The notes beneath the pieces are model-generated. The model saw only the letters and a list, made by a program, of their open reading frames with translations, had not been told where the DNA came from and did not search any database. From a virus (Duplodnaviria; Heunggongvirae; Uroviricota; Caudoviricetes), in IMG/VR virus record IMGVR_UViG_2609459840_000009: a stretch of DNA of 38,416 nt; one strand, given 5' to 3'. Every line of letters begins with the position of its first letter. The stretch's first letter is position 1. Position numbers and translations under genes: made by a program. Positions 2,834 to 28,320 of this stretch are shown in pieces.

Positions 2834-3430
2834 TCAATTTGAAACTATTGTACTTCTTATACAAGCAACCACTTCAATATCAGAAAATGCACATTCAAAG
2901 CTATTCTCTGTAGTTGTAATTTTAATCATACCTTTTGGAAGCTTTGTGATTTTTCGAATGGAATAGGTTCCGTCGATGTTGATTAACCAGTGCCCATCAA
3001 GTACTTCAGAAAATTTTTGATCACAAATGTATGTGACAAGCCCATCCAGAATAACAATTGGTGATGAAAGATTTGCAGGAAGAAATGATGAATCGAAGAC
3101 ATATGAACCATCTTCAATCATTTTGCCTGCGGTAAGGCGAAACTTGGGAAGCTCTTCTGTGGCTACTGTCAGCGAGCTTTGCTTAAGTCCTTGCCCGGTG
3201 GTTAACCATTTCAGTGAGGTTCCTGTTTCAAGAGCACATTGGATTATCCAGTCTGCAGGAAACGTATCCCGCAAATACCTGTTCGCCAGAGTGCTTTTTG
3301 ATACTTCCAAGTGATCAGCTAAAGCCTGTCGTGTCGTAAAGCCATAAGCTTCGACTAATCGCTCAATCGCAGCCTTACCACCTTTATTGGGATTTATTTT
3401 GATCTCACTTGGGTACTTTGATGTTGACAT
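2834..3430 (-). CDS. cI: 186-type CI immunity repressor (HTH DNA-binding)
   Basis: 198 aa ORF with ATG at 3428-3430. N-terminal HTH-like segment (TTRQALADHLEVSKSTLANRY). Divergent from the early operon, as for the repressor of 186-like phages. Confidence 0.8.
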   Translation of the reverse strand: MSTSKYPSEIKINPNKGGKAAIERLVEAYGFTTRQALADHLEVSKSTLANRYLRDTFPADWIIQCALETGTSLKWLTTGQGLKQSSLTVATEELPKFRLTAGKMIEDGSYVFDSSFLPANLSSPIVILDGLVTYICDQKFSEVLDGHWLINIDGTYSIRKITKLPKGMIKITTTENSFECAFSDIEVVACIRSTIVSN

Positions 3431-9559: not shown

Positions 9560-10300
9560 TCAGTTTTCTTTGAATTTTTCACTTAATCGTTTCGTCAATA
9601 CTTCGACAGATTCTTTGCGACCGGAGAACAAGTCATTGACGACGTACTCCATAATCTCAAAAGCATCCTCAATGTCTTTGACTTTTACTTCATCGTAGGT
9701 ATGGCTTCCGGCATTTCCTAAAAATTTAATTGCCATAAGAGGTCTTGAAAACGATCCGTATAATTCAGGTAGCATCCCTAAACGGTGGTGTAGAGTTATG
9801 CGTTTGCCATTATCATTACGTTCAGCTACATCCATAGCAGTTAGCATTCTTTCAACTGAAATTCGAATTAGGTTTGCTGCTGCGCCAGGCTGTATTAGGA
9901 AAATGGAAAATGAGGCTTCAAGCGGTTCGGTAATTTCTTTTGGGCATTTTTCAGGTATTTCGAAAGGATGCAGTGATGGGTAAAAGGTGAAAGGTCTATA
10001 CCATTGATAGTACTCAATATCATTTCTTTCTTCATCCCAACCTTGTTCCCATCCACTCTTACCAGTACAGGCCACAACTTCACCACATTGCATTCTTGAA
10101 CAGCGGGCCATGCAACTGAAAATAGATGAATCCATTTCTAGTTCAAACCAATCTTCACTGCGGAATTTTCGGGTATCATGTGTGTCATACGAGACGAAAC
10201 TTTCTTTAATGATCTGTAGGGTTTTCTGATTGCAGTTAGGGCAGGGCCACTCAACCTGCATATCGTGGAAAAACGCACCAGAGAGCTTGTGCACAGTCAT
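9560..10300 (-). CDS. cargo protein: N-terminal Cys-rich (zinc-ribbon-like) region, C-terminal DUF4145-like (possibly HEPN-like) region
   Basis: 246 aa ORF with ATG 10298-10300 and GAGGAA RBS. Cys cluster (CPNC ... CMARCSRMQCGEVVAC) and C-terminal motif IKFLGNAGSH reminiscent of DUF4145, from memory. AT-rich, in the P2 tin/old hotspot position. Confidence 0.6.
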   Translation of the reverse strand: MTVHKLSGAFFHDMQVEWPCPNCNQKTLQIIKESFVSYDTHDTRKFRSEDWFELEMDSSIFSCMARCSRMQCGEVVACTGKSGWEQGWDEERNDIEYYQWYRPFTFYPSLHPFEIPEKCPKEITEPLEASFSIFLIQPGAAANLIRISVERMLTAMDVAERNDNGKRITLHHRLGMLPELYGSFSRPLMAIKFLGNAGSHTYDEVKVKDIEDAFEIMEYVVNDLFSGRKESVEVLTKRLSEKFKEN

Positions 10301-10707: not shown

Positions 10708-11682
10708 ATGGGGTTAGGATTAAAAGACGCTATTGTGCATACCGCTGCGTTTCATCAAAAGGAAACTAATGAATTGCAATTGCCAAACAATCATTGGCAT
10801 CCTGGTTTTATCACTGTCTTAGCAGCTTACGTGAATCATCACAAAATTACCGAAGATAACTGTGTTTTGTCATGCCCGGGCTATATGCGAGCTATCAATT
10901 TACATGGTGCTTTATGGGGAGAGGATCAGTATCAACAGGAACGTGTAAATGTTGGAAGAAATTACAGTTTGGTTACAGCATTAACCAATGTTGAAGCTGT
11001 TGACGTTGCCACTGGTAGTATTAACAGTTGTGTAAGGCAGTTAACATTCCCTGATCGTGATCCGAGAGATTGTCCCAAGGGACTTACAGATCTAACCCAT
11101 GTTATAGGTGAGCTTCACGATAACGTTTGGTCGCATGGAAAATCAACGGGTTTTTCTTTTGCACAACGTTCGGCTGTACCCCACACTCAAAAAAAAGAGC
11201 ACTATTTAGAATTTTCTTTGGCGGACTGTGGGTTAGGATTTCTCCGAGAATTGCGGCGAGCTGGTATACCCGGAATTGAGACTCACCAGGATGCGATCGC
11301 ATGGTGTATTCAAGAGGGACATTCATCTAAGCATGCTGATTTGCAGGATGATTGGGCACAGCAGCTTCCCCAGGACTTTATTGGGGGTAGTGTGTTTGGC
11401 CACGGGGTTTCGGTCAAAGAAAAAGATAATAATCATCAAGGGCTTGGGTTGTATCACTTGATGAAATTGATAAAAACATATAATGGGGAATTGCAACTGG
11501 CTTCAGGAAATGTATGCTTAGAAGCAATAGGTGATGAAGTGAGCTATACTGAATTACGTACTGAATGGCCGGGTGTAGCAATTTCTTGCCGTTTTAAGAT
11601 TCATGAACTGGCAGTCGATAAAGATAGCGAAGAAAATGACCCTCAGCTTATGGAAATAATGCGGGCGTTAGGAGGAGAGTAA
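10708..11682 (+). CDS. cargo protein: GHKL/Bergerat-fold ATPase (histidine-kinase-like ATPase, RsbW/anti-sigma-kinase-like) with an unassigned N-terminal region
   Basis: 324 aa ORF with ATG 10708. N-box-like ELHDNVWSHG, G1-box-like DCGLGF and G2-box-like GLGLYHL are visible in the translation. AT-rich. Confidence 0.75.
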   Translation: MGLGLKDAIVHTAAFHQKETNELQLPNNHWHPGFITVLAAYVNHHKITEDNCVLSCPGYMRAINLHGALWGEDQYQQERVNVGRNYSLVTALTNVEAVDVATGSINSCVRQLTFPDRDPRDCPKGLTDLTHVIGELHDNVWSHGKSTGFSFAQRSAVPHTQKKEHYLEFSLADCGLGFLRELRRAGIPGIETHQDAIAWCIQEGHSSKHADLQDDWAQQLPQDFIGGSVFGHGVSVKEKDNNHQGLGLYHLMKLIKTYNGELQLASGNVCLEAIGDEVSYTELRTEWPGVAISCRFKIHELAVDKDSEENDPQLMEIMRALGGE

Positions 11683-12020
11683 TGAACAAAATCGCATACA
11701 AGTTACCCGAGGGTGACCTGGCTTCGCGCAATCAGGCTATCCCCCAACGACACAAGATTGAAGGGTTCATTAAAGAAGGGTATACCGTAGATTTAGATCT
11801 GAGCGGTGTTTATTCAATTTCAGAATCATACTCTGATGAAATCTTTGGTGTTTTGGTAGTGAAATTCGGTGTAACCAAAGTTTTGAGTCAAGTTAAGGTT
11901 CGCAATGCACCCCCTTCAATTTTAAAAAGTATTGCAAAAGTGATCCAACGCCGTAGTAATGAAGTAGCATCAAAAAAGGTTCATTCCGTTGGATTTGATG
12001 GTTTATACGCCGTTTGTTAA
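11682..12020 (+). CDS. cargo protein: small STAS-like (DUF4325-like) protein, putative partner of the GHKL ATPase
   Basis: 112 aa from ATG 11682 overlapping the upstream stop (TAATG), with strong GGAGGAGA RBS. Motif VDLDLSGVYSISESYSDEIFGVL resembles DUF4325/STAS-like proteins, from memory. Confidence 0.65.
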   Translation: MNKIAYKLPEGDLASRNQAIPQRHKIEGFIKEGYTVDLDLSGVYSISESYSDEIFGVLVVKFGVTKVLSQVKVRNAPPSILKSIAKVIQRRSNEVASKKVHSVGFDGLYAVC

Positions 12021-20866: not shown

Positions 20867-22156
20867 TCAATTGGTAAAAATTCTACTCTGCTCACCATAG
20901 CTGTCCTTTGCTTCGTTAATCAGATCCTCCCATGGCCATTTTATGGTTACATATTTTCGATAAATTAAAATGGTTCTGTCGATAGCAGTGACCTCATCAG
21001 TTGCATCATTGTAGGAAAGAACTAACCCTCTATCGTCACTATCAACCTGTAACTCTTCAATTTTTTGAAGTACAGTTCGCAGATTCCCTTTTAATATTCG
21101 ACTTTGTCTTCTTGACGCAATTTTAAAAATGGTATCTAACTCTAATCCTTGAATGAGTTCTTTATCGGATGAGTCCATTATTACAGCCATGGCATGAGCA
21201 TAAATGCCAGTGGTTTCTGTTCTTTTACGTATTCCTGATGATATATCTTTAGCAAATTTTTGATATCGAGAATTTAATTGTTCAGCATATTTCATGGCTG
21301 CATCAACGAATTTTTCTTGATCATCTAACATCGTTAATGTTGTACATTCCTCATCAATTCCTGTCTCGTCAAGAATGTTTAAGGCTAGTTGTTGTAAAAT
21401 CCCAACATTACCATAGCAATCATCAAGGATGCATCTCTTTATATGATCTGAGAACTTAACTTTTAAAGTTTCTGATCCACTTATTATTACTTGTTCAAGA
21501 TCGGCTCTAGACCATGATATGGGAATTTCTTCTATGCGAGAACCAAGGTCAGAATTTAAATAAATTAGTAGGTTTGTTTTTGTCCAAACACCAATGATTA
21601 CGAAAAAACAACCATAATCCCAAAGCGCCTTTAAGTCATAAGCAAATATTTGTCGTTCACGAGTGTTTAAGTAGTGAAAATCTTCAATAACTACTTTTCT
21701 TCCTGCTTCGTTAATTATTTCTGCAATAAATCTCAAATCATTAATATCTTGACCAACATTTCCTTTTTTTATTACCTCCTCTTCAGAAGTCTCAAGTCCA
21801 AATTTAACCTTTAGTTTTGCTATAAGACCAATGCCTCCTGCAGCAGAGCCCTCCATTACGCCTTTAATTGTATCTTTTTCGGTTCTCTCTAGCACAAGGC
21901 TTATACCTAATTGAGATAGAATATCTATATATATATCTAAAACGGTTGTCTTTAATCTGCATTGTACAACAATAGCATTAGGTATGTTCTTTTGTCTTAA
22001 CCATGACTTACCACATTTGGATTCCCCTCTTAAGGCGAGATGTATTGGTCGGCGTAATTTTCTACTGATTTCCTTATCAAGATTTCCTCTGTCTACATAT
22101 GAATCAGCAAGAATCGTTGGTGAAATACCAAAAACTTCGTGTGTTTGTTTCTTCAT
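20867..22156 (-). CDS. cargo protein: orphan P-loop NTPase (AAA+/ORC-like ATPase candidate), antisense to the late operon
   Basis: 429 aa from ATG 22154-22156 with GAGG RBS (the ORF track starts at an upstream TTG). Walker A GESKCGKS and Walker B-like VVIEDF. Visibly AT-rich; inserted between S and V where P2 has only an intergenic promoter. Confidence 0.7.
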   Translation of the reverse strand: MKKQTHEVFGISPTILADSYVDRGNLDKEISRKLRRPIHLALRGESKCGKSWLRQKNIPNAIVVQCRLKTTVLDIYIDILSQLGISLVLERTEKDTIKGVMEGSAAGGIGLIAKLKVKFGLETSEEEVIKKGNVGQDINDLRFIAEIINEAGRKVVIEDFHYLNTRERQIFAYDLKALWDYGCFFVIIGVWTKTNLLIYLNSDLGSRIEEIPISWSRADLEQVIISGSETLKVKFSDHIKRCILDDCYGNVGILQQLALNILDETGIDEECTTLTMLDDQEKFVDAAMKYAEQLNSRYQKFAKDISSGIRKRTETTGIYAHAMAVIMDSSDKELIQGLELDTIFKIASRRQSRILKGNLRTVLQKIEELQVDSDDRGLVLSYNDATDEVTAIDRTILIYRKYVTIKWPWEDLINEAKDSYGEQSRIFTN

Positions 22157-22176
22157 GATGGCCTCACTATCCGTTT

Positions 22177-22194
22177 TGTACTGTTTATCACACA
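22177..22194. promoter_or_regulatory. Ogr-type late-promoter activator site (TGT-N12-ACA dyad) upstream of V
   Basis: TGTACTGTTTATCACACA has TGT-N12-ACA, about 55 bp upstream of the V start codon and just upstream of the divergent cargo ATPase start. Confidence 0.4.
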
Positions 22195-22240
22195 AACAAT
22201 ACTAAAGGAAAGCCGCTTTCTTTTAATTAACTATATCCAT

Positions 22241-24070: not shown

Positions 24071-24668
24071 TCTGCTGCCACCGGGTTCAACTTCACTGGA
24101 GCGCCGACTGGCGCAAACCTGTAGCGGGATTTCTGATTTGCAGGTGCCGCTGCGTGACTTGTGGAATCCGGCTACCTGTCCGGTCAGCTTCCTGCCTTAT
24201 CTCGCCTGGGCGTTCTCTGTGGATCGCTGGGACGAGGGCTGGACAGAAAGCGTCAAACGCCAGGTAGTGAAGGATGCTTTTTATATTCATCAGCATAAAG
24301 GAACCACCAGTGCCGTGCGGCGGGTGGTGGAACCGTTCGGATTCCTGATCCGCATTATTGAGTGGTGGCAGACCGGAGAAACACCGGGCACGTTTCGCCT
24401 GGATATCGGCGTGCAGGACCAGGGCATCACTGAAGATACCTATCTGGAACTTGAGCGACTGATAAGCGATGCCAAACCATGTAGCCGCCACATGATCGGC
24501 ATGTCCATCAATCTGCAGACCAGCGGCCCGCATTGGGTGGGAGCCGCCAGCTATCTTGGCGAAGAAATCACGATCTATCCGTATATCAACGAAACGATTA
24601 TTTCCGGTGGCACCGCGCATGAAGGCGGGGCGGTCCATGTTATTGACACAATGAGAGTGAATCCATGA
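24063..24668 (+). CDS. I: baseplate/tail protein (P2 gpI family)
   Basis: 201 aa, overlapping starts and stops with J and H. Confidence 0.88.
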   Translation: MNSLLPPGSTSLERRLAQTCSGISDLQVPLRDLWNPATCPVSFLPYLAWAFSVDRWDEGWTESVKRQVVKDAFYIHQHKGTTSAVRRVVEPFGFLIRIIEWWQTGETPGTFRLDIGVQDQGITEDTYLELERLISDAKPCSRHMIGMSINLQTSGPHWVGAASYLGEEITIYPYINETIISGGTAHEGGAVHVIDTMRVNP

Positions 24669-26182
24669 GCACAAAATTTTATACCCTGCTGACGGATATT
24701 GGCGCGGCGAAACTTGCCAGCGCCGCCGCGCTCGGTGTGCCGCTAAAAATTACCCATATGGCGGTGGGCGATGGCGGCGGAGTATTGCCAACGCCGGACG
24801 CAAAGCAGACGGCACTGGTAAATGAGAAACGCCGGGCTGCGCTGAATATGCTTTATATCGACCTGCAGAACAGCAGCCAGATTATTGCTGAACAGGTGAT
24901 CCCTGAAAACGAGGGCGGTTGGTGGATACGTGAAGTGGGCCTGTTTGATGAGTCAGGGGCATTGATTGCCGTGGGCAACTGCCCGGAAAGCTATAAGCCG
25001 CAACTGGCTGAAGGCAGCGGGCGCACCCAGACCGTGCGTATGGTGTTGATTACCAGCAGCACGGACAATATCACCCTGAAAATCGACCCTGCCGTAGTGC
25101 TGGCAACCCGCAAGTATGTGGATGACAAGGCACTGGAGCTGAAGGTGTACGTGGATGACCAGCTGGCAAAACACCTTGCCGCACCGGACCCGCATTCACA
25201 ATATGCACAGAAAGAAAGTCCGACGTTTACCGGGACACCAAAAGCGCCAACACCTGCGGCAGGCAATAACACCACGCAGGTTGCGACCACTGCGTTTGTT
25301 CAGGCGGCACTGACGGCTCTTATTAATGGTGCGCCAGCCACGCTGGACACACTGAAAGAAATAGCCGCAGCCATTAACAATGACCCGAAATTCAGTACCA
25401 CCATTAATGATGCGCTGGCACTCAAAGCGCCGCTGTCGAGTCCTGCACTTACCGGGACGCCGACAGCCCCCACGGCGGCACAGTCGGTCAACAATACACA
25501 GATTGCCACCACGGCTTTTGTGAAATCGGCGATTGCGGCAATGGTGGGTTCTGCACCTGCTGCACTGGATACACTGAACGAACTGGCGGCGGCGCTGGGA
25601 AATGACCCGAACTTTGCCACGACAATGTTGAATGCTCTGTCAGGTAAACAACCGCTGGACAATACGCTGACTAATTTGAGTGGAAAGGATGTAGCTGGTC
25701 TTCTCGCATACCTTGGTTTGGGAGAAACGATAAATAAAGCCTCCGGAGCTATGCAGAAATCGGCTAATGGATCTGATATTTCTGATGTATCAGCCTTCCG
25801 AAATGCGCTCCAGTTAGGGACCGCTGCAACACGAGATGTTGGAGCAGATAATCCCTCGAAGTTACTGGATTTAGACAGCTTCAGGTCAATGATGTCAGGT
25901 AATGGCTACATCTACATTCCATGCATTGCGACGACAGGAAACCCGGTGAAACTTATGTTGCAGTGGGGAACGGTGGCAACACAAAAGGGAGCTGATGTTG
26001 GATATGCCTTACCATTTGCTTTTCCCTATGCAGGCTTGTTTGCGACCGGAAACCGTGGAACATCTGGCTACAATGCCGCGATGAATGTGCGTATTGCCAG
26101 CAGAACGCATATCAGTATTCAGAACTGGTCGCCATCCGGAGAGGGCACCGAAGATTGTTGTTTTATCGCGCTGGGGTATTAA
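24665..26182 (+). CDS. H: tail fibre protein (P2 gpH family); C-terminal part lies inside an invertible segment
   Basis: 505 aa with conserved N-terminus (MSTKFYTLLTDIGAAKLA...), internal tandem repeats and a recombination crossover site at 25701-25726. Confidence 0.9.
   Translation: MSTKFYTLLTDIGAAKLASAAALGVPLKITHMAVGDGGGVLPTPDAKQTALVNEKRRAALNMLYIDLQNSSQIIAEQVIPENEGGWWIREVGLFDESGALIAVGNCPESYKPQLAEGSGRTQTVRMVLITSSTDNITLKIDPAVVLATRKYVDDKALELKVYVDDQLAKHLAAPDPHSQYAQKESPTFTGTPKAPTPAAGNNTTQVATTAFVQAALTALINGAPATLDTLKEIAAAINNDPKFSTTINDALALKAPLSSPALTGTPTAPTAAQSVNNTQIATTAFVKSAIAAMVGSAPAALDTLNELAAALGNDPNFATTMLNALSGKQPLDNTLTNLSGKDVAGLLAYLGLGETINKASGAMQKSANGSDISDVSAFRNALQLGTAATRDVGADNPSKLLDLDSFRSMMSGNGYIYIPCIATTGNPVKLMLQWGTVATQKGADVGYALPFAFPYAGLFATGNRGTSGYNAAMNVRIASRTHISIQNWSPSGEGTEDCCFIALGY
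25214..25657 (+). repeat. in-frame tandem duplication (about 2 x 74 codons) inside the tail fibre gene
   Basis: Two consecutive protein units: SPTFTGTPKAPTPAAGNNTTQVATTAFVQAALTALINGAPATLDTLKEIAAAINNDPKFSTTINDALALKAPL and SPALTGTPTAPTAAQSVNNTQIATTAFVKSAIAAMVGSAPAALDTLNELAAALGNDPNFATTMLNALSGKQPL. Boundaries approximate. Confidence 0.5.
25701..25726. other. 26-bp serine-invertase crossover site (gix/hix/cix-like), left site inside gene H
   Basis: TTCTCGCATACC-TT-GGTTTGGGAGAA is an imperfect palindrome around a central dinucleotide and shares the 14-mer TTGGTTTGGGAGAA with the inverted partner at 27625-27650. Confidence 0.7.
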
Positions 26183-26184
26183 GA

Positions 26185-26601
26185 ATGAATAAATTTTATA
26201 AAGGCTCTTTCTATCCGGAAGCACTAAAAGATGTATATATCAGCGCCGGTTCATGGCCTGAAAATGGCGCTGATGTTGATGATGAAACAATGGCAATTTA
26301 CACAGGCGTAGCGCCAGAAGGCAAAACGCTGGGGGCTGATAAAAATGGTAATCCTGCGTGGATTGATATCCCGCCACTCTCCGCTGAACAACAGATTATT
26401 CTGGCTGAACAGAAAAGAACGGTATTGCGTTCTATGGCTGATAAGGAAATAGTCTGGAGACAGGATGCTTTTGATGCGGAAATCGCGACGGCAGAAGAAA
26501 CCGCCGCGTTATCTGAATGGAAAAAATACCGGGTCTTGCTGATGCGCGTTGATACATCAAATCCCGTCTGGCCTACGCCTCCGGGGGAGCAGGCCAATTG
26601 A
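26185..26601 (+). CDS. G: tail fibre assembly protein (P2 gpG family), current orientation
   Basis: 138 aa from ATG 26185, just after the H stop. Confidence 0.8.
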   Translation: MNKFYKGSFYPEALKDVYISAGSWPENGADVDDETMAIYTGVAPEGKTLGADKNGNPAWIDIPPLSAEQQIILAEQKRTVLRSMADKEIVWRQDAFDAEIATAEETAALSEWKKYRVLLMRVDTSNPVWPTPPGEQAN

Positions 26602-27175
26602 TATCCGGCGCGGTGCTGGTATCAGTTGCCGTCACCGCGTCAATGTAATCCAGCACAGCGTTAAGTCGGGTGTTTTCTGTCTGCGTCAGCTTCCGCCCGG
26701 TCTGCAATTTCAGTTGAATCAGACTAATGGAAGCCATTGCAGTATCAATCAGTGACTGACGCTGTGCTTCTGCCGCGCCTACTGCGGCACTATGCTGTGC
26801 CTCAGTATCTGTCACCCATTTCTCACCATCCCATTTATCGTATGGCGTTAACGGTGCGAGAGTGGTTGTATTATCAGGGTAATCACCCGGTGCTGTGATT
26901 TCTTTTGATTCTCCTGTTTCGGTGCTAAAGACAATTTCACCGCGATGGTCCGGCACATATTCCCATGAATTTAAATCCACAGAGCGGCAAATTGAATAAC
27001 CATCCTTATGTGTACCAGGAGCCTCTAAACAGGAACATGCCGGAATACCAACACCCACAGCAAGATATTCAGATGATTCGGAAATATATTCCCGCGTATC
27101 ACCATCATAGTTATAAACGATGACGTTTCCCGCCTGTACGGCAATAAGGTCATTATTTAATATCGCGTTATTCAT
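26573..27175 (-). CDS. alternative tail fibre assembly protein (G'), inverted orientation
   Basis: 200 aa with ATG 27173-27175; convergent with G and overlapping its 3' end; downstream of the alternative fibre C-terminal segment on the minus strand. Confidence 0.75.
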   Translation of the reverse strand: MNNAILNNDLIAVQAGNVIVYNYDGDTREYISESSEYLAVGVGIPACSCLEAPGTHKDGYSICRSVDLNSWEYVPDHRGEIVFSTETGESKEITAPGDYPDNTTTLAPLTPYDKWDGEKWVTDTEAQHSAAVGAAEAQRQSLIDTAMASISLIQLKLQTGRKLTQTENTRLNAVLDYIDAVTATDTSTAPDINWPAPPEA

Positions 27176-27678
27176 TATGCAGCTCTCACAATATAATTGA
27201 AGGCGATGTTACGTGGGCGGGTTTCATTTCCCCCTGAAAACTCCGTTCTGTATTGACTGTTAAACCTCCCGTTAATCGCACCTTCCTGCACGGCGTTATC
27301 TGTCGACAACAGACTGTCGCCCTGTCTGTCATTTGGTTCCAGTACTGTATTATTCCACGCGTCCCATGATCGGATATAGTGACAATGACTCCCTGTCAAC
27401 CATTCCTGTGCGCTTAAGATGGCTCGACCTGTATCCACACCGCGCCCGTCATCCCAGCCACGAATAAATTCACCGCGTAAATCAGGTAATTTTCCGCTCG
27501 GGTAAGCCTTTGCCAGTTCCGGGTATTCTTCAGCAGAAAAAGCCGCACCGTTGCATTTCAGCCAGCCTGTCGGAGGTGTGACAGAAGGCCAGGGAACAGG
27601 GACACCAACGGGTAATGCTGAGCCTTCTCCCAAACCAACGTTTAAGAAAATGCAGAGGTAACAGCTAACTGGCATCAT
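27175..27678 (-). CDS. alternative tail-fibre C-terminal segment (H variable part'), predicted to be expressed only after inversion fuses it to the constant part of H
   Basis: Open frame on the minus strand with no convincing independent start. Its N-terminal GLGE codons coincide with the crossover site and mirror the GLGE at the H crossover site. Confidence 0.65.
   Translation of the reverse strand: MMPVSCYLCIFLNVGLGEGSALPVGVPVPWPSVTPPTGWLKCNGAAFSAEEYPELAKAYPSGKLPDLRGEFIRGWDDGRGVDTGRAILSAQEWLTGSHCHYIRSWDAWNNTVLEPNDRQGDSLLSTDNAVQEGAINGRFNSQYRTEFSGGNETRPRNIAFNYIVRAA
27625..27650. other. 26-bp serine-invertase crossover site, right site (inverted relative to 25701-25726)
   Basis: TTCTCCCAAACC-AA-CGTTTAAGAAAA; its reverse complement ends in TTGGTTTGGGAGAA, identical to the right half of the left site. 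Confidence 0.7.
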
Positions 27679-27705
27679 CTCCGGTTTTTATTCAGGGGGA
27701 TGATC

Positions 27706-28272
27706 ATGCTTATTGGCTATGTACGTGTGTCAACAAATGACCAGAACACCGATTTGCAACGTAATGCACTGAACTGCGCGGGATGTGAGCGAATTTTTGA
27801 GGACAAAATCAGTGGCACTAAGTCCGACAGACCGGGACTGAAAAAACTACTCAGGACACTATCGGCAGGAGACACGCTGGTTGTCTGGAAGCTGGACAGG
27901 TTGGGACGCAGTATGCGGCATCTTGTTACGCTGATAGAAGAGTTGCGCCAGCGTGGCGTGAATTTCCGAAGCCTGACTGACAGTATTGATACCAGTACCC
28001 CAATGGGCCGTTTCTTTTTTCATGTCATGGGTGCCCTGGCTGAAATGGAACGCGAACTGATAGTTGAACGTACCAGGGCGGGGATTGCTGCAGCTCGCGA
28101 CAAAGGCAGAGTAGGTGGACGTCGTCCTAAGTTGACCACCGAACAGTGGGCACAGATTGGACGTTTACTCGAGGCCGGAGAATCAAGACAGCGTATTGCA
28201 CTGATTTTTGATGTGGGCGTTTCTACCATTTATAGAAAATTTCCGGCAAATAAGAGCAGTGAATCCCCCTGA
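27706..28272 (+). CDS. serine recombinase, DNA invertase (Gin/Hin/Cin/Pin family)
   Basis: 188 aa from ATG 27706 (alternative ATG at 27700). N-terminal catalytic motif GYVRVSTNDQ with the active-site serine; C-terminal HTH (GVSTIYRKF). Confidence 0.9.
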   Translation: MLIGYVRVSTNDQNTDLQRNALNCAGCERIFEDKISGTKSDRPGLKKLLRTLSAGDTLVVWKLDRLGRSMRHLVTLIEELRQRGVNFRSLTDSIDTSTPMGRFFFHVMGALAEMERELIVERTRAGIAAARDKGRVGGRRPKLTTEQWAQIGRLLEAGESRQRIALIFDVGVSTIYRKFPANKSSESP

Positions 28273-28320
28273 ATCAGCATAATTTTGATTATCCCTGCAA
28301 GTAGACAAATACCGTCATTT

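Follow-up and report, generated by a model that had tools for sequence, protein, structure and literature searches.

What does a prophage gain from a tail-fibre gene that is followed by a second, silent fibre end and by the gene of a DNA invertase? This arrangement is found in the IMG/VR virus record IMGVR_UViG_2609459840_000009, a stretch of 38,416 nucleotides that is referred to here, at its full length, as the window. In it the fibre gene H is followed by the assembly chaperone gene G, a convergent alternative chaperone gene (G'), an alternative fibre end on the opposite strand, and the gene for a serine invertase. Is this an invertible segment by which a single prophage can build two kinds of fibre, as was originally predicted from the DNA sequence? 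Or has the segment stopped moving, is it moved by an enzyme encoded elsewhere, or is it part of a larger system with more than two states? We conclude, with a probability that we put at about 0.93, that positions 25713–27638 are a two-state invertible tail-fibre segment of the Pin/Gin/Cin type, carried by an apparently complete P2-like Escherichia coli prophage adjoining ybjL. The system is a member of the Pin/Gin/Cin group, and the switch is of an ordinary type with a textbook mechanism that was known before.

Crossover sites and the two ends of the fibre gene

The longest inverted repeat between 24600 and 28400 is a pair of 26-nucleotide sites that are 81% complementary. The left site (25701–25726, + strand) reads TTCTCGCATACC-TT-GGTTTGGGAGAA, with the central TT at 25713–25714, and lies inside H, where it encodes LLAYLGLGE. 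The right site (27625–27650, - strand) reads TTCTCCCAAACC-AA-CGTTTAAGAAAA on the + strand and TTTTCTTAAACG-TT-GGTTTGGGAGAA as its reverse complement, and is centred on 27637–27638. In each, a 2-bp core that is TT on the reading strand is flanked by two imperfect inverted half-sites of 12 bp (12-2-12), and each encodes the motif GLGE in its own frame. Two inverted 26-bp sites with an identical inner 14-mer had been predicted here, and both are present as described. Aligned with the known sites, they have the architecture of gix, cix and pix and a sequence close to that of e14 pix.

The window contains exactly two copies of the 14-mer common to the two sites, one on either strand. Taken by itself this count is weak evidence, since with two or fewer mismatches 9 of 100 shuffles also reached two matches or more. 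A half-site weight matrix was trained on the e14, Mu and P1 sites only, and was scanned over the whole 38-kb window and 30 shuffled windows. The left site scored 27.9 and the right site 27.2; the next best position in the window scored 13.1 and the shuffle maximum was 14.8 (n = 30).

The same searches bear on whether there are more than two states. Three inverted repeats and four variants are on record for one P2-like prophage (PMC4272514), and a multiple-inversion system, whether shufflon-like as in p15B Min or like that three-site locus of enteropathogenic E. coli (EPEC), would here involve hidden sites and more than two fibre variants. Neither the 14-mer search nor the matrix scan of the whole 38-kb window found any crossover site above background beyond these two, which therefore make a simple two-state switch, and the segment contains two tips and two chaperones only. 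The chance of a multiple-inversion system is practically negligible.

As read in the window, H (24665–26182, + strand) encodes 505 amino acids, with a Phage_tail_fib domain at the N-terminus and a Gp53-like_C domain at the C-terminus. Its first 349 amino acids (24665–25712, + strand; Pfam Phage_tail_fib, residues 1–150, E = 9.6e-64) are kept in both orientations, and this constant part is colinear with Klebsiella phage KP12, phage 500465-1 and E. coli ES1 as far as 25726. The variable end expressed in the window orientation, here called tip A (25715–26182, + strand, 155 amino acids), has a Pfam Gp53-like_C match (E = 9.9e-8) and also matches PHROG tail-fibre and virion-structural families. It is followed by its assembly chaperone G (26185–26601, + strand, 138 amino acids; Pfam Caudo_TAP, E = 1.7e-30). 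On the opposite strand, convergent with G, is the alternative chaperone G' (26573–27175, - strand, 200 amino acids; Pfam Caudo_TAP, E = 3.9e-33), which is 85% identical to e14 TfaE. The silent alternative end of H, tip B (27175–27636, - strand), is 153 amino acids long when counted from GLGE. It has a Pfam Collar match (E = 4.8e-15), is 61% identical to e14 StfE, and matches the PHROG tail collar fibre family (E = 1.4e-70).

When the 1.9-kb segment 25713–27638 is flipped in silico, tip B becomes an in-frame continuation of the constant part of H. The product, H', has 503 amino acids, and its stop codon overlaps the ATG of G'. Both site sequences are left unchanged by the flip, because their inner 14 nucleotides are identical. 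This in-frame fusion, with G' next to it, is the exchange of fibre tip and chaperone that had been predicted, and the proposed gene content of the segment (H, G, G', silent tip and invertase) is confirmed by open reading frames and Pfam domains.

One detail of the original prediction has to be corrected. The alternative tip is present, but it is not start-less: its open reading frame runs beyond the crossover site (27651–27678, - strand) to an in-frame ATG at 27678, outside the segment. The RefSeq counterpart of this open reading frame is a free-standing coding sequence of 167 amino acids named 'phage tail protein' (locus L003, 3376–3879). Independent translation of the silent tip is doubtful, because GGAG abuts the ATG at 27678 without a spacer, and the silent orientation has probably misled the annotation into a free-standing call.

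Both orientations in the same prophage lineage

The region of the window as read is matched by E. coli ES1 in a single alignment, with 100% coverage and 97.7% identity. With the segment inverted in silico it is matched in the same way, in one alignment each, by strains 8GC, A30 and 3090 (100% coverage, 97.6–97.7% identity). Direct alignment of ES1 with 8GC gives flanks of 1927 and 2276 bp that are 100% identical and an inverted segment with 99.5% identity. Where the colinear and the inverted alignments overlap, they cover exactly the two 26-bp sites, which places the breakpoints inside the sites. In ES1 and 8GC the invertase, the two chaperones and the sheath and baseplate genes carry identical RefSeq protein accessions, and the fibre coding sequence of 8GC, at 1512 nucleotides, matches the predicted 503-amino-acid H'. 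Counting matches with at least 80% coverage, 2 genomes are window-like and 7 are inverted. KP12 and 500465-1 have flanks that run colinear as far as 25726 and again from 27624; there the half of the Collar/TfaE type occupies the expressed position, joined at the same site, and the silent half differs from that of the window.

Both orientations therefore exist in nature, in the same prophage lineage. The prediction that they would be found is upheld by public genomes instead of reads, ES1 being window-like and 8GC, A30 and 3090 inverted. Together, the sites, the invertase, the reading frame and the two orientations bear out the reading of the locus as an invertible segment. Matches of 99% or more that covered only positions 411–2339 of the query were first taken for a cassette in unrelated phages. 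This view was withdrawn, since at least 8GC, 3090 and A30 are the same prophage with the segment inverted.

Are the differences between strains old events, and is the segment in the window a frozen relic in which sites and genes remain but inversion, for example through a silent invertase, no longer occurs? The evidence on orientation is comparative and does not come from reads of this strain, as such a relic would allow. On the other hand, ES1 and 8GC differ by the inversion and yet have flanks that are 100% identical, so that the inversion must be very recent. In addition, the homologous switches of e14 and P2-like prophages flip under standard growth (PMC4272514). The state of the invertase also bears on this question.

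The adjacent invertase and its putative enhancer

The gene at 27706–28272 (+ strand) encodes an intact serine DNA invertase of the Pin/Cin/Gin group with 188 amino acids (Pfam Resolvase, E = 7e-53; HTH_7, E = 1.2e-15). It is 84% identical to e14 PinE, 76% to P1 Cin and 73% to Mu Gin. Over residues 1–184 it aligns with two crystal structures of Gin, 3uj3 and 4m6f (E = 7e-93); Ser9 is conserved, and D64, R65 and R68 are present as well. It also carries K46, K47, R50, Q150, R153 and L154, in a numbering that equals that of Hin minus 1. In Hin, positions 47, 48 and 51 (basic, helix-B) and Q151, R154 and L155 (helix-1 of the DNA-binding domain) are conserved only among invertases that depend on Fis and an enhancer (McLean et al., PMC3798978). 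The wild-type residues H106 and M114 are kept at the positions that are altered in Fis-independent mutants; in the 3uj3 chain, residue 114 is V. The serine invertase expected beside the segment is thus there, and a check for inactivation found it full length with its catalytic residues intact. The retention of all catalytic and Fis-contact residues in a full-length protein argues against a frozen relic.

Does this enzyme do the work? Gin, Cin, Pin and Hin are able to complement each other, and a real inversion might be mainly the work of a different invertase in the same cell, for instance e14 Pin or the enzyme of another prophage. The sites of the window are nearly identical to e14 pix, and several such loci are common in E. 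coli genomes, where the number of matching places per genome has a median of 2 and a maximum of 11. Against such action in trans, the adjacent invertase is intact and has the same place beside the right site in all relatives examined, and no second invertase is present in the window. We consider it extremely unlikely that another enzyme is mainly responsible; the adjacent invertase presumably does the work.

A putative Fis-dependent recombinational enhancer is located at 27724–27795 (+ strand), inside the 5' end of the invertase gene (gene nucleotides 19–90). It has in-register homology to the annotated enhancer of P1 cin, with identities of 56/72 to cin and 61/72 to pinE. Fis-like 15-mers of the form G-N13-C at 27727–27741 and 27776–27790 (gene nucleotides 22–36 and 71–85) are conserved in all four genes, and ATTTG and TAATG are found between the two Fis-like cores. 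About 96 bp separate the first core and the centre of the right site. This spacing is similar to that from hixL to the proximal Fis site, which is roughly 100 bp (PMC3798978). By analogy, inversion may depend on Fis.

Several points weigh against the reading of the locus as a working two-state switch. In the register used, the Fis-like cores are 49 bp apart and the centre of the second is G/C-rich. Synonymous-site values for the enhancer codons 7–30 and for codons 31–135 are 0.35 vs 0.47 (window/pinE) and 0.64 vs 0.62 (window/gin), differences that are small and inconsistent; because the stretch is also coding and this test gives no clear signal, the enhancer is designated putative. No sigma-70-like promoter was found upstream of the invertase by a simple consensus scan, so that expression of the invertase is only presumed. 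Switching in this particular lysogen is only predicted, from comparison with other strains. The last point concerns the receptors. Among the tips of Mu, P1 and e14, the only good match is that of tip B to e14 StfE. Tip A has no close characterised relative among them, and therefore no receptor can be assigned. The unrelated folds of the two tips (gp53-like_C vs Collar) and the analogy with Mu and P1 suggest that tips A and B may bind different receptors.

The missing promoter-like site would also suit a frozen relic. Set against the intact invertase, the recent inversion between ES1 and 8GC, and the activity of homologous switches, this leaves a relic quite unlikely.

An active two-state switch would operate as follows. 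Dimers of the invertase would bind the two inverted 26-bp sites, and host Fis, bound to the enhancer within the 5' end of the invertase gene, would help to build the complex, as it does for Hin and Gin. The invertase would cut at the central TT/AA dinucleotides, exchange strands and flip 25713–27638. In the window orientation H would end in tip A, with its gp53-like C-terminal domain, followed by the chaperone G. In the inverted orientation the constant part of H would be fused in frame at GLGE to tip B, with its Collar domain, followed by G'. A population of lysogens would then give rise to particles with either of two receptor-binding tips, at a switching rate that we infer.

Known switches and the surrounding element

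The closest parallel to the sites is the P segment of e14 in E. coli K-12, with Pin (pinE, stfP/tfaP/tfaE/stfE). As in the window, the order is fibre, chaperone, convergent chaperone, silent tip and invertase. The e14 pixL site is CTCTCGAAAACC TT GGTTTGGGAGAA, and pixR, as its reverse complement, is TTTTCATAAACG TT GGTTTGGGAGAA; both have the inner half-site and the central TT of the window sites and depart from them in the outer half-site, by 3 nt in one case and 1 nt in the other. However, e14 is a defective lambdoid element, whereas the P2-like myovirus prophage of the window is apparently complete. A further difference is that the cassette of tip A and G is not StfP/TfaP of e14: G matches TfaP only over 37 amino acids at the C-terminus, and tip A does not match StfP.

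The G segment of Mu, with Gin, likewise has a constant S, a variable tip, U, U' and S', with gin last, next to the right site. The 26-bp 12-2-12 design of the window sites recurs in Mu gix and P1 cix. The central dinucleotide of gix is TC/GA, unlike TT/AA in the window, and the Mu segment is about 3 kb, compared with 1.9 kb. The Mu tips are essentially unrelated to those of the window, the sole faint match being that between tip A and Mu S' (34% over 71 amino acids). In the C segment of P1, with Cin, the sites also have TT at the centre, and their half-sites closely resemble those of the window. There the 3' end of cin abuts cixL, whereas in the window, Mu and e14 it is the 5' end of the invertase gene that faces the site, and the P1 segment is larger, at 4.2 kb.

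The P2-like prophage loci (those of EPEC E2348/69, described in PMC4272514, and those of 500465-1, KP12, pro483 and Cartapus) are of the same phage type as the window and, like it, occupy the P2 Z/fun region, where they stand between I/H and FI, the gene of the sheath. Both the invertase of the window and its flanks are 95–97% identical to those of KP12 and 500465-1. One EPEC locus has three sites, in contrast to two in the window. Inversion of the e14 segment has been picked up from read pairs and confirmed by polymerase chain reaction (Goldberg et al., PMC4272514), and read pairs also revealed that two P2-like prophages of EPEC E2348/69 undergo inversion, three sites being present in one of the two. 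At the P2 Z/fun hotspot a DNA invertase is often accompanied by inverted neighbouring genes (iLund4u preprint), and related phage records already annotate a 'DNA invertase' and paired tail-fibre assembly genes. The mechanism has already been demonstrated at the level of reads in e14 and in P2-like prophages, and the present case advances no open question.

Some further features of the fibre region were observed. The 3' ends of G and G' overlap by 29 bp (region 26569–26601), and the same overlap is found in e14 tfaP/tfaE, KP12 and 500465-1. Homology to other cassettes begins at 26569, so that a tip and its chaperone seem to travel together when a half is exchanged, the G/G' overlap being the boundary. 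The constant part of H contains an internal repeat (25217–25251 and 25439–25473) with a period of 222 bp, or about 74 amino acids; the P1 record lists 'repeated elements b1/b2' of equal period in the part of S that is constant. The KP12 record gives its fibre gene only 1269 nucleotides, and the gene is followed by a 'hypothetical protein' of 243 nucleotides (locus L001, 866–2418), and the match to tip B ends after 70 amino acids. This suggests a frameshift or sequencing error in the fibre gene of the KP12 record.

The host is E. coli, the right flank of the element being 100% identical to the ybjL-ybjM-grxA region. The element encodes an integrase, a CI repressor, gpA, gpD and other P2-type genes, and over most of its length it is 96–97% identical to Peduoviridae-type phages of E. 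coli and Klebsiella. It also carries genes that resemble cargo. Amid the tail gene block, on the opposite strand, an open reading frame of 442 amino acids (20867–22195, - strand) has no Pfam match and matches the PADLOC candidate defence family PDC-S59 over its full length (E = 1.9e-197). To judge from this similarity, it is probably anti-phage cargo of the prophage. Between the integrase gene (1–1053) and that of the CI repressor (2834–3430), a known cargo position in P2, there is a gene for a protein of 558 amino acids (1137–2813, - strand) with T5orf172/MUG113 and DUF4041 domains and a match to PADLOC PD-Lambda-1 (E = 9e-120); its domains and match make it a likely second defence gene. A DUF4145 protein with a weak PD-T7-4 match (9560–10300, - strand) is encoded between the replication and packaging genes. 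At 10708–12020 (+ strand) there are a protein of 324 amino acids without a Pfam match, whose best match is the family of unknown function phrog_3364, and an open reading frame of 112 amino acids with a faint DrmA-like match. These two stretches, 9560–10300 and 10708–12020, are another cargo-like island.

The invertase gene itself is framed, from ribosome-binding site to stop codon, by a perfect 12-bp inverted repeat, ATTCAGGGGGAT/ATCCCCCTGAAT, at 27690–27701 and 28263–28274. The repeat is kept in the close relatives KP12, 500465-1 and ES1 and is absent from e14, Mu and P1. It may be due to chance, because about 0.4 such repeats are expected in the region. From its position, the repeat could be a sign that the invertase gene forms a cassette able to move or invert on its own, or, again from position, the silent tip could be translated alone from the ATG at 27678 as a free protein; we hold such readings to be very unlikely. 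If true, a mobile invertase cassette would help to explain the presence of such invertases in many unrelated phage hotspots.

The two-state switch affects both annotation and the prediction of host range. In RefSeq-style annotation the silent tip is labelled as a free-standing 'phage tail protein', and each assembly is credited with just one of the two fibre proteins. The search of complete genomes with a query inverted in silico is a fast, read-free test for suspected invertible segments. For the biology of the prophage, the consequence is that a phage freed from the lysogen should bear one of two receptor-binding tips.

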